From IMG/VR virus record IMGVR_UViG_2065487013_000003, positions 3,047 through 67,046 of that record: a DNA stretch of 64,000 bases; one strand, written 5' to 3'. The DNA comes from a virus. Below the pieces are notes generated by a model. It worked only from the letters and a program-made list of their open reading frames with translations, ran no database searches and had not been told where the DNA came from. Every line of letters begins with the position of its first letter. The stretch's first letter is position 1. Positions 2,478-39,997 of the stretch are shown here, one piece after another. A program made the position numbers and the translations under genes.

Positions 2478-3449
2478 ATGACCACAACTGTAAACTCTGA
2501 CCTGATTATTTATAACGACCTGGCGCAGACCGCTTTCCTTGAGCGTCGCCAGGATAATTTGCAGGTATTTAACGATGCCTCAAACGGTGCCATCGTTCTG
2601 GACAACGAACTGATCGAGGGTGATTTCCGTAAACGTGCGTTCTACAAAGTAGGCGGCAGCATTGAAACCCGCAACGTTAACTCAACCGAAACGGTAGAAG
2701 GTAAAAAAATCGGTGCTGGCGAAGCAGTATCGGTAAAAGCGCCGTGGAAATATGGCCCGTACCACACCACTGAAGAAGCGTTTAAACGCCGCGGTCGCAG
2801 TGTAGACGAGTTCTCTGAAGTGGTTGGCGTTGACGTGGCAGACGCTGCGCTTGAAGGCTACGTGAAATATGGACTGAAGGCGCTGATCGCTGCAATCGGC
2901 GGTAATGCTGACATGGTGGTTACCGCCGATATTGAAACTGACGGTAAGCGTACCCTTACCCGTGGGCTGCGTAAGTACGGCGACAAATTTAACCGCGTAG
3001 CGCTGTTCGTCATGCACTCCGCTACCTATTTCGACATCGTGGATGAGGCTATCGCCAACAAAATCCACGAAGAAGCGGGTGTGGTTGTGTACGGCGGTCA
3101 GCCTGGCACGCTGGGTAAGCCGGTTCTTGTCACTGACTCAATGGATGTTGATGCCATTCTGGGTCTGGTTCAGGGCGCGGTGTATGTCACCGAGTCACAG
3201 GTTCCGGGGTTCCGTTCCTACGACATCAACAATCAGGAAAACCTTGCTGTAGGCTTCCGCGCAGAAGGCACGGTGAATGTTGAGCTGTTGGGCTACAGCT
3301 GGGATGAGTCGAAAGGCGATAAAAACCCGAGCCTGGAAAAAATCGGTACCGAAGGGAACTGGAAAAAACATTTCACTTCTAACAAATCTACCGCAGGCGT
3401 GCTGATTAAGCTCACTGGCGCCGAACCCGCAAATCAGTCCGTAAAGTAA
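2478..3449 (+). CDS. Major capsid protein
   Basis: 323 aa, high-expression codon usage, position after the scaffold. Confidence 0.88.
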   Translation: MTTTVNSDLIIYNDLAQTAFLERRQDNLQVFNDASNGAIVLDNELIEGDFRKRAFYKVGGSIETRNVNSTETVEGKKIGAGEAVSVKAPWKYGPYHTTEEAFKRRGRSVDEFSEVVGVDVADAALEGYVKYGLKALIAAIGGNADMVVTADIETDGKRTLTRGLRKYGDKFNRVALFVMHSATYFDIVDEAIANKIHEEAGVVVYGGQPGTLGKPVLVTDSMDVDAILGLVQGAVYVTESQVPGFRSYDINNQENLAVGFRAEGTVNVELLGYSWDESKGDKNPSLEKIGTEGNWKKHFTSNKSTAGVLIKLTGAEPANQSVK

Positions 3450-22459: not shown

Positions 22460-22488
22460 ATTATAAGCGAGGCCGCGTTGACGTGTTG
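22460..22488 (-). promoter_or_regulatory. Candidate xis-int promoter (perfect -10, poor -35)
   Basis: TATAAT at 22465-22460; the -35 position reads CAACAC. Confidence 0.45.
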
Positions 22489-22504
22489 ATTAATCGAAAT
22501 CAGG

Positions 22505-31469: not shown

Positions 31470-31688
31470 ATGAACAACATCCGAAAAATCCGCAGAAACA
31501 TCGGCTTGACTCAGCGCCAGATGGCGGAAGAGCTGAACCTGACGACAGGCGCGGTATGCCATTACGAAAAAAATAAACGCAGCTTAAGCCTGGAGCAGTG
31601 CCGGGCGATTGTTGCGGCTCTGAATAAGCATGGCGCTTCAGTTAGCGTCGATGACGTTTTTCCACCAATCAACAGCAACGCCGCTTAA
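31470..31688 (+). CDS. cro: Cro-like HTH regulator
   Basis: [24 protein letters not shown]; divergent from cI; AAGGAG RBS. Confidence 0.9.
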
Positions 31689-31717
31689 CGGCGGCCTTAA
31701 CCACGAAAGGGAAAGCA

Positions 31718-32260
31718 ATGCATTCACTTGCGTATCAACACAATACCGGAATACACCCGGGAGCGATGATAAACCGCGCTCAAGCTAAAGCGGCGCCAGA
31801 CCACGAAAAGATCCGCGATGCGGTCCGGGCATGGTCGTCGGCTCTGGACAATCAGGATGTCGTTTCGGCGTTGATCATCAACGAATACCGGGAGCAGGGC
31901 GGGACCGCCATCAGCTTCCCGGAGGACATCAGCCGGGCGCGTCAGAAGCTGTTCCGCTTTCTGGACAACCGTTTCGACTCAGAACAGTACCGCGAGAACG
32001 TGCGCCAGCTGACGCCCGCAATCATGGCGGTTCTTCCACTGGAATTTCGCAACCGCCTGGCGCCGCAGAACGACACGATGTCGCTGATCGCCTCTGCGAT
32101 GAAAGAGTGTGCAGAGGCTAAGCAGGCCGTTCTGCTGGACGCTCCAGAGCATCAGAAGCTGAAAGAGGTTAGCGAGGGTATAGCGTCGCTGTTCCGCCTC
32201 ATGCCGGAGCAGGTAGGGCCGCTGATGACGATGGTTACGTCGATGCTGGGGGTTATGTGA
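31718..32260 (+). CDS. ydaT: YdaT-family (DUF1019) CII-equivalent regulator
   Basis: IRDAVRAW...ARQKLFRFLDN...LTPAIMAVLPLEFR...KECAEAKQAVLL; cII position. Confidence 0.85.
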   Translation: MHSLAYQHNTGIHPGAMINRAQAKAAPDHEKIRDAVRAWSSALDNQDVVSALIINEYREQGGTAISFPEDISRARQKLFRFLDNRFDSEQYRENVRQLTPAIMAVLPLEFRNRLAPQNDTMSLIASAMKECAEAKQAVLLDAPEHQKLKEVSEGIASLFRLMPEQVGPLMTMVTSMLGVM

Positions 32261-36145: not shown

Positions 36146-36433
36146 ATGGTGAAGGTATTGGTTTATGGTGGCGGATATAACGGCGTTGTTCGTGAAGTTG
36201 AGTCCGCAAGTTCACCCGTAAGAATCCTCCGCGGCGACTGGGTCCGCGATCGTGATGCTCATCATGCAGGCGGAAAGGTGGAAGCGGTCAATTGCGATGA
36301 GGAGTTTTCAATTCGTGAGTTTGAATATGCTGAAGGCCAGGTTTATTTAATCGCCGAGCATGGCGTTACCATTCCAGATGAAGAAATCAGGAAGCGTATT
36401 GATGTGATGCGCAGCTTAAAGTCACTGTCATGA
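36146..36433 (+). CDS. Hypothetical 95-aa protein, first gene of a three-gene insert
   Basis: AGGA RBS; TATAAT at 36108. Confidence 0.65.
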
Positions 36434-36687
36434 GTGAGTTCAATATTGCAGCCAAAAGCCAAGAGGAGCGCGACAAGGTTAACGTTGACCTTGCGGCTTC
36501 CGGAGTGGCCTACAAAGAACGCCTGAATATGCCGGTTATCGCTGAGGTGGTGATGCGTGAGCAGCCAGAGCATTTGCGGGACTACTTTCTTGAGCGTTTG
36601 AGCTATTACCGCGAGCAAAGCGTGAGCCTACCAAAACCTTCAGACCCCAGATATATTGAGATGTCGGCACAGAGCGAGAAAAAATGA
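36430..36687 (+). CDS. holE: DNA polymerase III theta subunit homologue (HolE / P1 Hot)
   Basis: [25 protein letters not shown]...[10 protein letters not shown]. Confidence 0.92.
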
Positions 36688-36974
36688 TGGAACCTACTAA
36701 TAAAATTACAAGGCAGCAATTTAATGATATTCAGCGAGCTATCCTAAATGCCGCAAACTCCTCCACAAAAGACCTGGCCAGGTCTTCCTTAGAATTGGCA
36801 AAAGCCTATCGCGCTCAAATCAGACATCTGCTCGATGACTATGTTGATGAGCAATTAAGTTCCGCATTGATCTATGCTGATGAGGCCGCAGGAAGAGTTA
36901 AAGACAAGGACCGAAAACTGGAAAATGTCGAGCATTTCCTATACAAATTCAAGTCCGGTCTTACCTTCGAATAA
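36684..36974 (+). CDS. Hypothetical 96-aa helical protein
   Basis: Coupled to holE; AT-rich. Confidence 0.6.
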
Positions 36975-37003
36975 TTGATTTTCCATAATCAACCAGCCAT
37001 AAT
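36975..37003 (+). promoter_or_regulatory. Internal sigma70 promoter overlapped by a TTGATT-N6-AATCAA inverted repeat
   Basis: TTGATT-17-CATAAT; TTGATT ttccat AATCAA at 36975-36992. Confidence 0.7.
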
Positions 37004-37059
37004 CATGTCATCGGAGCCTGAACAACTCCGGTGACTTCTGCGCATTTAAGGGGACTTAA

Positions 37060-37155
37060 ATGCGACCACAATCTGAACTCCTCACCTTGTCACAGATGCA
37101 GAAATGCACCTGCGATTTTCTGCATTCTGCGGTTTCCGTTAGGGAGGCCGTATGA
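37060..37155 (+). CDS. YlcH-like 31-aa leader ORF
   Basis: MRPQSELLTLSQMQKCTCDFLHSAVSVREAV; ATGA-coupled to ninB; RBS and start lie inside a hairpin. Confidence 0.6.
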   Translation: MRPQSELLTLSQMQKCTCDFLHSAVSVREAV

Positions 37156-37607
37156 CTCTTCCAGTAGACGGCATCAAACTCCATCGCGGCAACTTCGCGG
37201 CCATTGGCCAGCAGATTCAGCCATTGCTGGATGCCGGGCAATGTTTCCGCCTGCAAGTCAAACCGTGGCGCGAGAAGCGCAGCCTGTCGCAGAACGCGCT
37301 CAGCCACATGTGGTACACGGAAATCAGCGAGTACCTCGTCGCCCGCGGTAAGACCTTCGCCACGCCTGAGTGGGTCAAGGACGCGATGAAGCACACCTAT
37401 CTCGGCTACGAAAGCAAGGACCGGGTAGACGTCGTGTCCGGAGAGGTAACCACGGTCCAATCCCTCCGCCATACGTCAGAGCTGGAAACCGGCGAGATGT
37501 ACATTTTCCTGTGCAAAGTCGAAGCCTGGGCGATGAATATCGGCTGCCACCTGACCATCCCGCAGAGCTGCGAATACCAGCAGTTGCGCGATAAGCAGGA
37601 GGCCTGA
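37152..37607 (+). CDS. ninB: NinB / YbcN recombination protein
   Basis: KRSLSQNALSHMWY...TSELETGEMYIFL. Confidence 0.9.
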   Translation: MTLPVDGIKLHRGNFAAIGQQIQPLLDAGQCFRLQVKPWREKRSLSQNALSHMWYTEISEYLVARGKTFATPEWVKDAMKHTYLGYESKDRVDVVSGEVTTVQSLRHTSELETGEMYIFLCKVEAWAMNIGCHLTIPQSCEYQQLRDKQEA

Positions 37608-37777
37608 TGTCTACTCCACTTTCCCGCGTCATCACAAATGAAATCTTCCGCGTTCCGGCGCGCCGCAAGCGCAAGGTCGCGGTTAAGCCGTCCGACATCC
37701 CGACCTTGAAAGGCTACACCGCCCGCCTGGTGGATCAGAAATGGCTGCGACTCGCAGCGAGGAGAAAATCAGCATGA
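37607..37777 (+). CDS. ninE: NinE-like protein
   Basis: [17 protein letters not shown]...PSDIPT; absent from the ORF track. Confidence 0.7.
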
Positions 37778-38442
37778 GCATGTATCAACGCATTAATGGC
37801 GCTGACTGGCGCAATATCTTCGTCGTCGGCGATCTGCATGGGTGCTACACGCTGCTGATGAATGAGCTCGAAAAAGTTTCGTTCAACCCTGCGCGTGATT
37901 TGCTGATCTCGGTTGGTGACCTTGTTGACCGCGGCGCGGAAAACGTCGAATGCCTGGAGCTGATTACTATGCCGTGGTTCCGGGCTGTGCGCGGAAACCA
38001 TGAGCAGATGATGGTGGACAGCCTTTCAGAGTACGGAAACGTCAATCACTGGCTGGTAAATGGTGGCGGTTGGTTCTTCAATCTCGACTATGACAAAGAA
38101 GTGCTGGCTAAGGCTCTGGTTCACAAAGCGGCTGATCTGCCATTCGTCATCGAGTTGGCTACCGCTGAACGGAAGGTCGTTATCTGCCACGCTGACTACC
38201 CGCATAACGAATATGCGTTCGATAAGCCAGTATCAGAAGAAATGGTGATCTGGAATCGTGAGCGGGTTAGCGACGCTCAGGACGGCATTGTCTCGCCGAT
38301 AGCCGGTGCTGATCTTTTTATTTTCGGACACACCCCAGCCCGCCAGCCCCTGAAGTATGAAAACCAGATGTACATCGATACCGGCGCTGTGTTCTGCGGA
38401 AACCTAACGCTGGTGCAGGTTCAGGGTGATGACCATGCGTAA
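37774..38442 (+). CDS. ninI: Ser/Thr protein phosphatase (lambda NinI / PphA family)
   Basis: GDLHG, GDLVDRG, RGNHE, FGHTP, IDTG. Confidence 0.93.
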
Positions 38443-39076
38443 ACCATCCCGCCGTAAATGCAAAGTATGCGGTGAATACTTCGAGCCGAAATTCCACGAC
38501 ATCCGGATCCGCTGGTGCAGTCCTGAGCACGGCGCAATCCTCGCAATGGAAGAGCTTGAAAAGGAGAAGGTTAAAGCCGCGGCTAAGCGCATCAAGGAGC
38601 AGAAGGAAGCTGAGAAGGCCGGGCGCAAACGTCGCAAGGAGCGGCTGGCTGAGCTTCGGCCTGCCGGTTACTACAAAGCGCAGGCTCAGCAGGCATTCAA
38701 CGCATACATCCGTGCGCGCGATGCTGATTTGCCATGCATCAGCTGCGGCGAGACCAACCCGCCTGATCTGCATGGCGGGCAATGGGACTGCGGCCATTTC
38801 AAGACTGTAGGCGCCAACCCTGAACTGCGCTTTGAAGAGCGCAACGCCCATAAGCAGTGCAAATCCTGTAATGCCGGAGCCGGAAAGTACACCGCCAAGG
38901 AGGCGACCGTAGCGCAGCAATATGAAGCTGGTCTGGTCGCTCGTTACGGCCAGGAATACGTCGACTGGCTCAATGGCCCACACGAAATGACCAACTACCG
39001 CCGTGAAGACTTCATCCGGATCCGCGATGAGTACCGCGCCAAGCTCAAAGCACTGAAACAGCAGGAGGCCGCATGA
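38435..39076 (+). CDS. ninG: NinG / Rap structure-specific endonuclease
   Basis: [30 protein letters not shown]. Confidence 0.92.
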
Positions 39077-39213
39077 AGCCAGAAACGATCGAGATACTCC
39101 GAGCGCGCTGGCAGCGCCTCCGGATTTACCGCCGCCCGGGCTCCGTGCTGGTGGATTACCGCATTCTCCGTAACTTCGTTCGCATCTATTACCCTGCAGG
39201 AGCCGCACAATGA
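39073..39213 (+). CDS. ylcG: YlcG-like small protein
   Basis: IEILRARWQRLRIYRRPGSVLVDYRILRNFVRIY. Confidence 0.75.
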   Translation: MKPETIEILRARWQRLRIYRRPGSVLVDYRILRNFVRIYYPAGAAQ

Positions 39214-39899
39214 ACAGTCAGCAACTGGAATACGTACGTCAGCAGCTCATTGTGGCGACCGCAGATCTGAGCGGGGCGACCAAAGGGCAACTGGTAGCTT
39301 TCGCCGAGAACGCGCAGTTCACCGCGACGGCGCGCAGCCGGGGCCGGAAGAAAATCACCGATCCGGTCACCGGCCGCAAAGTTAACCCGGACGGCCCGGC
39401 GATGAGCGGCAGCCAGTCCCGCGCCAAGGGATCGTCAATCGCGCTGGTGGGGCCGGTTGAGTTCGTGACAGCATCTTGGCGCCGCGCGGTGCTGTCGCTG
39501 GAAGACCATCAGAAAGCGTGGCTGCTGTGGAACTACAGCGAGAATATCCGCTTCGAGCACCAGGTGGCGATTACCCAGTGGGCATGGGCAGAGTTCCAGG
39601 GGCAACTCGGCGCGAAGAAGGTGGCCGGCAAGACGATGGAGCGGCTGAAGAAACTTATCTGGCTGGCGGCGCAGGACGTCAAAGCGGAACTGGCGGGGCG
39701 TGAGACGTACGAATATCAGGAGCTGGCGGAGTTGGCTGGCGTGGCGAAATCCACCTGGACAGAAACGTATCTGCCTCACTGGCTGGCGATGCGTAACAGC
39801 TTTAAGCGACTCGATAGCGGTGCGCTTATCTCAGTAACGCGATCACGTTCACAACAAAAGGCGACAAATTTAGACGTAAGTCTTGCAAAACCGAACTGA
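39210..39899 (+). CDS. Q: Late antiterminator Q (phage 82 / QuuD type)
   Basis: QLEYVRQQL...DLSGATKGQL...WTETYLPHW; upstream of pR' and lysis genes. Confidence 0.9.
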   Translation: MNSQQLEYVRQQLIVATADLSGATKGQLVAFAENAQFTATARSRGRKKITDPVTGRKVNPDGPAMSGSQSRAKGSSIALVGPVEFVTASWRRAVLSLEDHQKAWLLWNYSENIRFEHQVAITQWAWAEFQGQLGAKKVAGKTMERLKKLIWLAAQDVKAELAGRETYEYQELAELAGVAKSTWTETYLPHWLAMRNSFKRLDSGALISVTRSRSQQKATNLDVSLAKPN

Positions 39900-39911
39900 A
39901 ACGCATATATT
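39883..39911 (+). promoter_or_regulatory. Late promoter pR'
   Basis: TTGCAA-17-TATATT at the end of Q. Confidence 0.7.
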
Positions 39912-39964
39912 TCATGTAAATCTGATATCATCGCCATAGCTTTGATTGTCGACACAAAGAATTC

Positions 39965-39997
39965 AAGCCCGAGGTTAACGCCTTGGGCTTTTTTATT
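39965..39997 (+). terminator. tR' terminator
   Basis: AAGCCCGAGG-TTAACG-CCTTGGGCTT followed by a T run. Confidence 0.85.

Follow-up and report, generated by a model that had tools for sequence, protein, structure and literature searches.

For a long time, YdaT proteins were wrongly labelled as toxins; recent work has recognised them as CII analogues. The YdaT protein of prophage CP-933P is such an analogue, activating the promoter PRE933P (PMC8630535), and it protects the repeat 5′-TTGATTN6AATCAA-3′ in the operator OM (PMC9986795). The YdaT protein of the Rac prophage footprints a YdaT-box, ATGATT-N6-AATCAA, at the start of ydaT; the Rac and CP-933P proteins cross-recognise conserved YdaT-boxes, and bridging of separate sites was proposed for Rac YdaT (PMC11879457). 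In the papers on CP-933P and Rac YdaT examined here, sites were described in the immunity region and at rcsA only, and none at int or nin promoters. In phage lambda, a single decision protein, CII, serves three targets, pRE, pI and paQ, for repressor establishment, integration and the damping of Q, respectively.

We analysed a window of 64,000 nucleotides (nt) of viral DNA (positions 3,047 to 67,046 of IMG/VR record IMGVR_UViG_2065487013_000003, the whole of which measures 70.9 kb). Like CP-933P and Rac, this prophage carries a YdaT-family gene at the cII position, an assignment made in a preliminary description of the sequence and borne out by our Pfam search (PF06254, E value of 7.5 × 10−28). 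The gene lies on the plus strand at 31718–32260 and encodes a CII analogue of 180 amino acids, the proposed binder of the sites described here. The protein is 93% identical to phi80 CII and only about 25 to 30% identical to CP-933P YdaT, and it belongs to the phi80-CII subtype with an N-terminal extension. It aligned to PDB entry 8bt1 with an E value of 1 × 10−4, and the best PDB matches of its AlphaFold model (pLDDT of 81) were 8bt1 and 3c4r (probability of 1.00, TM score of 0.62 to 0.67 normalised by target). The recognition helix keeps the equivalents of Arg53, Gln56, Lys57 and Arg60 of the CP-933P protein, and across 22 diverse relatives Phe79 and Arg80 are invariant while Gln76 and Lys77 are nearly so. 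For the YdaT family as a whole, the recognition helix and the helix-turn-helix loop were reported to be variable (PMC9986795). Lambda CII, by contrast, is a member of PF05269, a family unrelated to the YdaT proteins with their POU-like helix-turn-helix fold and tetramerisation helix.

The candidate YdaT operator is an 18-bp inverted repeat, TTGATT-ttccat-AATCAA, read directly from the sequence at 36975–36992 with no strand assigned and located directly 3′ of the TAA stop codon (36972–36974) of the upstream open reading frame (ORF). It covers positions −35 to −18, with its centre at approximately −26.5, of a predicted plus-strand sigma-70 promoter, here called P(ybcN), which consists of TTGATT (36975–36980), a 17-nt spacer, within the 16 to 18 nt that we accepted, and CATAAT (36998–37003), scores 9 of 12 against the consensus, and is predicted to start transcription at about position 37010. 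The motif is identical over all 18 bp to CP-933P OM and one base away from the Rac YdaT-box. The preliminary description had correctly named TTGATT-N6-AATCAA as the sequence bound by CP-933P YdaT, and the palindrome, the promoter, two hairpins and an upstream ORF (uORF) that it placed downstream were all found by direct reading. The boxes of CP-933P and Rac lie at the ydaS/ydaT junction or at the start of ydaT, whereas the present one lies downstream of ydaT at a distance of 5.2 kb and occupies a repressor position on a rightward promoter. The genome-wide search that had been proposed found a single exact copy of the motif, both in the window and in the entire 70.9-kb record. With up to one mismatch allowed there were 2 matches against 0.17 expected, and at least two matches occurred in 1 of 100 shuffled sequences. 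A half-site weight matrix run over the 64 kb returned two sites above 15 bits, one at 36975 (21.5 bits) and the other at 22486 (19.7 bits), the next best scoring 14.1 bits.

Consensus promoter matches in the region numbered 9, with 8.2 expected by chance. Among the RNA data, one raw-read run yielded 33 reads, which belonged to a relative whose upstream flank differs and formed no pile-up of read starts; a second run yielded 0 reads, and two other runs consisted of contigs. Readings of the palindrome as a Fur, IHF or FNR site were rejected because spacing or flanks did not fit. A leftward promoter at this box was discarded as well, there being no −10 hexamer at 20 nt and no conservation of the left flank, and so was HusR (YnfL), whose site falls between ybcO and rusA instead (PMC12844172).

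The cassette headed by this promoter is not new, nor are the promoter, the first hairpin and the uORF as such. The record of phage 82 (X92588, Mahdi et al. 1996) annotates all three in its orf33-orf151 region, with the same putative −35 and −10 hexamers and a small ORF overlapping a YbcN-type Orf protein, and the uORF corresponds to ylcH of Escherichia coli K-12; in the homologous cassettes of phage 82 and DLP12 (ylcH-ybcN), the small ORF has 31 to 33 codons. The same record labels hairpin 1 a "possible regulator-binding site", and the inverted repeat IR4 in the phi80 record (JX871397) is our hairpin 2. These records, that of DLP12 included, mark the −35 hexamer but not the palindrome, and none names a regulator. 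Downstream, ninE, a phosphatase gene and ninG are found here in place of ybcO and rusA. Our literature searches on the regulation of ylcH and ybcN and on YdaT at int or Q returned nothing relevant. What is new is the proposed link of this known cassette to YdaT, a variant of the CII theme that is absent from the YdaT literature examined.

To characterise the box, we compared 191 cassettes from IMG/VR and named phages and used their 109 unique sequences for per-position conservation. The box occurred with up to two mismatches in 183 of the 191. Among the unique cassettes, positions 1 to 6 and 13 to 17 were conserved at 87 to 100% and position 18 at 78%, whereas spacer positions 9 to 12 were free and the sequence to the left of the box was unrelated. 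A symmetric variant, TTGATA-N6-TATCAA, is present in phi80, HK225 and some IMG/VR loci. With its half-sites kept and its spacer free, the palindrome behaves like a protein operator, as far as comparative data support such a statement. The cassette is present in 3023 of 5426 complete E. coli genomes, and the homology nearly always starts at the first base of TTGATT; in E. coli K-12, prophage DLP12 has an identical promoter and an exact palindrome before the 33-codon ylcH and ybcN. The genomes of phi80, HK225, HK639, Perceval and CobraSix contain hardly any core match other than the ybcN box, so that a specificity of the phi80 type of YdaT for this motif is putative.

Two proviruses, G002 (C1:31000–31900) and G001 (C1:28300–28950), carry the box, the promoter, hairpin 1 and then a hairpin whose loop contains the ribosome-binding site and whose stem contains the start codon before a different first ORF, which indicates that the regulatory head is a portable unit. 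In G002, a second box lies 260 bp upstream. Two genes upstream of the palindrome in the window, a homologue of the theta subunit of DNA polymerase III is encoded at 36430–36687 (PF06440, E value of 6 × 10−35), and HK639 and CobraSix have the same theta subunit gene in the same place.

The second-best site of the weight matrix belongs to a candidate pI-like promoter of the xis-int operon on the minus strand (22460–22503, 19.7 bits), in which CTGATT-N6-AATCAA (22503–22486) is followed after 20 nt by a perfect TATAAT (22465–22460), and 22 nt separate this hexamer from the start of xis. The products were identified by Pfam as Xis (PF07825) and Int (PF00589). The centre of this box lies at −41.5, which is the position of a class II activator. 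In related xis loci, the box is located exactly 20 nt from the −10 hexamer in 80 of 80 cases. The spacing holds even in a diverged group whose half-sites read TGATA/TATCA, whose intervening sequence is unrelated and which lacks a usable −35. Every cII gene typed beside those xis loci was of the YdaT family and none encoded lambda CII. The site resembles an int promoter activated in the manner of CII, but with a location ahead of xis instead of within it; with the promoter in this position, Xis would be made as well as Int, unlike from lambda pI. The int promoter of phi80 has no box, and its int/xis module is different.

A third box lies on the minus strand within the first 22 codons of ydaT, the position of pRE, and forms part of a candidate pRE-like leftward promoter (31740–31783) composed of ATGATA-N6-GCTCAA (31766–31783), a 20-nt interval and the −10-like hexamer TATTGT (31745–31740). 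The box is degenerate in this phage (4.8 bits, 8 of 12 positions), and better boxes are found at homologous codons in other YdaT subtypes; a related box at the 5′ end of ydaT is a further likeness of this phage group to CP-933P and Rac. In every unique case, about three dozen in all, the ydaT-internal box is followed on the minus strand by TAnnnT at 20 nt. Of the 32 sites in the window that score at least 4 bits, only the xis and ydaT sites show this 20-nt geometry, against 0.49 expected. Whole-record scans of five related proviruses yielded 2 to 4 core boxes per 50 kb and 0 for a reversed-pattern control, and in the records inspected the boxes were located at xis, approximately 50 nt inside ydaT and at the ybcN-type promoter. 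Between cro and ydaT, at 31679–31695, we also noted a GC-rich inverted repeat, GCCGCTTAACGGCGGC, which our scan scored as terminator-like on the minus strand; this repeat may act as a signal of the tR1 type or mark where a leftward RNA ends.

We interpret the palindrome as the operator of the prophage's own phi80-type YdaT, which would have three targets, activating the two leftward promoters and occluding the promoter of the ybcN-Q operon, and from sequence comparisons we put the probability of this reading at roughly 60%. YdaT would bind the boxes before xis-int (22460–22503) and inside ydaT (31740–31783) and activate both promoters from −41.5, and it would also bind the box at 36975–36992 on the rightward promoter that heads ylcH-ybcN-ninE and the genes up to Q. 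Since the left half-site of this last box is itself the −35 hexamer, binding of YdaT should keep RNA polymerase off the promoter and reduce Q at high CII-like activity. Such a regulon would resemble that of lambda CII in that its two activated promoters point leftward and lack a good −35. It would differ from it in that lambda CII sites are TTGC-N6-TTGC direct repeats, which straddle the −35, and not inverted repeats, that the int promoter lies upstream of xis, and that lambda damps Q by antisense RNA, an effect that direct occlusion of the promoter would achieve here. A site resembling paQ was sought within Q (39210–39899), where no box of at least 4 bits was accompanied by a −10-like hexamer at a distance of 20 nt and all scores stayed below 10 bits.

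YdaT might also bind the nin-side box with an effect other than simple repression, the bound protein acting as a roadblock for polymerase arriving from pR, as one of two anchors, the other being the ydaT 5′-end box, of a DNA loop held by the tetramer, or as a titration site. We consider this unlikely, despite the bridging of separate sites put forward for the Rac protein (PMC11879457). The start of the internal promoter is a predicted one, and the identical K-12 cassette is weakly expressed (PMC12844172), both of which would suit a site whose function is not tied to this promoter. Against a roadblock or a loop, the −10 hexamer of P(ybcN) is conserved at 83 to 100% per position in the 109 unique relatives and its distance to hairpin 1 is fixed. 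Furthermore, a second version of the promoter has CTGATT-N6-AATCAT followed by TATAAT, and its box, displaced by approximately 11 bp further upstream (−46 to −29), still lies over the −35. Steric repression predicts just this, a box that changes position without ever leaving the −35, whereas neither a roadblock nor a loop anchor needs such an overlap.

That the box serves a different protein, be it another phage product or a host factor found in Enterobacteriaceae, and resembles the YdaT-box through an AT-rich coincidence, appears quite unlikely to us, and the genes neighbouring the cassette bear on it from both sides. Where a YdaT-family cII lies beside the cassette, 59 unique junctions comprised 41 exact, 7 one-mismatch and 11 two-mismatch boxes; the 5 unique junctions with a lambda-type CII comprised 1 exact, 3 one-mismatch and 1 two-mismatch box, and these are small numbers from related loci. 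Equal conservation of the box beside a classical cII, which the preliminary description had named as evidence against YdaT, was neither established nor clearly contradicted by these figures, because the box is less exact there (one of five) but still present (five of five). The box also persists in prophages that have lost any immunity region, such as DLP12, and two O157/E. coli loci at icd represent a prophage with its immunity region deleted. Three different subtypes of the YdaT recognition helix co-occur with the same box, as a site for some other protein would allow, and a search for covariation between box variant and recognition helix gave no clean pattern, phi80-type proteins being found with both TTGATT and TTGATA boxes. 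FNR half-sites, TTGAT and ATCAA, equal those of the palindrome at another spacing; the FNR spacing is N4 and not N8. What speaks for YdaT is that the same motif recurs in relatives at its published location, the 5′ end of ydaT, and again at int, which is the target set of CII, and that no boxed xis locus had a lambda CII. In addition, the CI operators of this prophage are unrelated repeats, and the Q promoter region has no such box.

It is very improbable that no regulator is involved, with TTGATT kept as a −35 only and the right half retained by descent in front of a constitutive or read-through nin leader. In favour of this view, many of the cassettes are close relatives, promoter function accounts for the left half-site, and consensus promoters are not above chance. 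Against it, the right half-site lies in a promoter spacer that makes no sigma-70 base contacts and is nonetheless conserved at 78 to 100% beside four free bases, a symmetric variant exists, and the motif recurs at two other promoters.

The whole 156-nt leader folds far better than shuffled sequences (z score of −5.45) and is 75 to 80% identical to those of phage 82, HK225 and phi80. Hairpin 1 (plus strand, 37007–37035, −14.5 kcal/mol, z score of −4.2) forms the 5′ end of the predicted transcript and consists of a 10-bp stem with one G-U pair and the 9-nt loop CCUGAACAA. Nearly all of its approximately 57 distinct variants fold alike with different stems, and RNAalifold identified compensatory pairs, one of which is AU in 32 and GC in 23 variants. 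The combination of many stems with a conserved loop argues for an RNA structure rather than the protein-binding site proposed in 1996, and hairpin 1 is possibly a protective 5′ stem-loop or a recognition element. The loop (37017–37025) is kept while the stem is free, and its CUGAAC recurs 50 nt downstream (37071–37078), just after hairpin 2; a complementary GUUCAG was looked for in the leader and not found.

Hairpin 2 (plus strand, 37041–37064, −12.0 kcal/mol, z score of −7.5) has a 10-bp stem and a GGGA loop, so that the ribosome-binding sequence GGGGA lies in or next to the loop and the AUG of the uORF, at 37060, within the 3′ arm. Because the MAFFT alignment of the leader misaligned this hairpin, its pairs were counted from alignments anchored on the loop. 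By this count, there are 10 stem variants, and their first six pairs are paired in 98% of cases, against 20 to 50% with a shifted partner; the loop does not vary, and in every case the start codon is found 4 to 6 nt into the 3′ arm. The uORF (plus strand, 37060–37155, from the ORF list) is the 31-codon homologue of ylcH and orf33 and overlaps the start of ybcN (37152) by ATGA. In nearly all of 83 variants its frame is kept at 29 to 34 codons with an ATGA or GTGA overlap at the end, and insertions and deletions occur in threes; the variants share the core SQMQKCTCDFLH, while their N-terminal sequences are unrelated. A further hairpin inside the uORF (plus strand, 37095–37126, −12.7 kcal/mol) covers the most conserved nucleotides of the leader and shows no covariation because it is invariant in the alignment, where it also served in part as the search anchor. 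In the last hairpin (plus strand, 37128–37152, −15.3 kcal/mol), the ribosome-binding site of ybcN, GGGAGG, is paired with an upstream stretch of the uORF, and two of five RNAalifold pairs are changed on both sides.

These structures make a translational lock in the leader a reasonable proposal. Hairpin 2 would hold the ribosome site in its loop and bury the start codon of the uORF, and since the last hairpin buries the ribosome site of ybcN, translation of ybcN would depend on translation of the uORF. The cmscan search that the preliminary description had advised assigned the leader to no known class, returning no Rfam family for 36800–37300 at E values up to 10. The map position corresponds to that of the lambda tR2 region, between ren and ninB in the gap before ninB; lambda tR2, however, is a terminator made of a hairpin and a T-run, whereas the present locus has a promoter instead, neither hairpin 1 nor hairpin 2 is followed by a T-run, and neither was listed by our terminator scan. 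The put RNA of HK022 is an element of approximately 70 nt that directly follows an early promoter, contains two bulged stems and exists in two copies, putL and putR (PMC9378689). Two hairpins follow the promoter here too, but their stems are perfect and lack an Rfam match, and no second copy of hairpin 1 was found in the window.

Downstream of the leader, overlapping genes run along the plus strand from the ybcN-type ninB to Q (37152–39899; PF05772, PF05322, PF00149, PF05766 and PF06323). The chain comprises ninB (37152–37607), ninE (37607–37777), a phosphatase gene (37741–38442), ninG (38426–39076), an ORF of 46 amino acids (39073–39213) and Q (39210–39899). In our scan, no clear terminator was found between P(ybcN) and Q. 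At the 3′ end of Q (39883–39990), a promoter-like TTGCAA/17/TATATT is followed by a strong terminator (39965–39990); this region contains no YdaT-type box and is the pR′-tR′ arrangement expected for an antiterminator of the Q82 family.

The suggestion of the preliminary description that YdaT dampens Q by direct repression gained from the comparative conservation, the recurrence of the motif and the kept recognition residues, and lost from the presence of the box beside lambda CII and the absence of YdaT in the lysogen. YdaT is a product of pR that the lysogen lacks, and it therefore cannot keep P(ybcN) harmless there; with no clear terminator on the way to Q, either another control must exist or the promoter is weak. 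K-12 rusA obtains no useful expression from its cassette (PMC12844172), and this low expression with an identical promoter points to a limited output of P(ybcN).

A broader form of the YdaT-operator reading, to which we give somewhat less than an even chance, is that the YdaT-type CII proteins of phi80-like phages govern a three-promoter regulon through one palindromic box, with a pRE-like promoter and the xis-int promoter activated from −41.5 and a dedicated Q-operon promoter directly shut off. No site in the genome matches better than the Q-side box, and the damping of Q would for this reason be the most sensitive output of the decision between lysis and lysogeny. In the same broader form, the exact box in DLP12 would let the YdaT of Rac or CP-933P cross-regulate another prophage. 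E. coli K-12 both carries the exact box on the DLP12 ylcH-ybcN promoter and encodes Rac YdaT. Cross-talk between Rac YdaT and DLP12 is absent from the YdaT literature examined and appears possible from the sequence; because the promoter and the protein are present in one strain, K-12 would offer a simple test of the proposal.

The published targets of YdaT are limited to one host gene and the immunity region. Should the three sites prove real, the full lysogeny-decision logic of the very common phi80/DLP12-type prophages would be readable from their sequence, and there would be an explanation of why thousands of prophages have the box precisely where two mosaic modules meet. The regulon would also represent a second evolutionary solution for restraining Q, in which the occlusion of a promoter replaces an antisense RNA.
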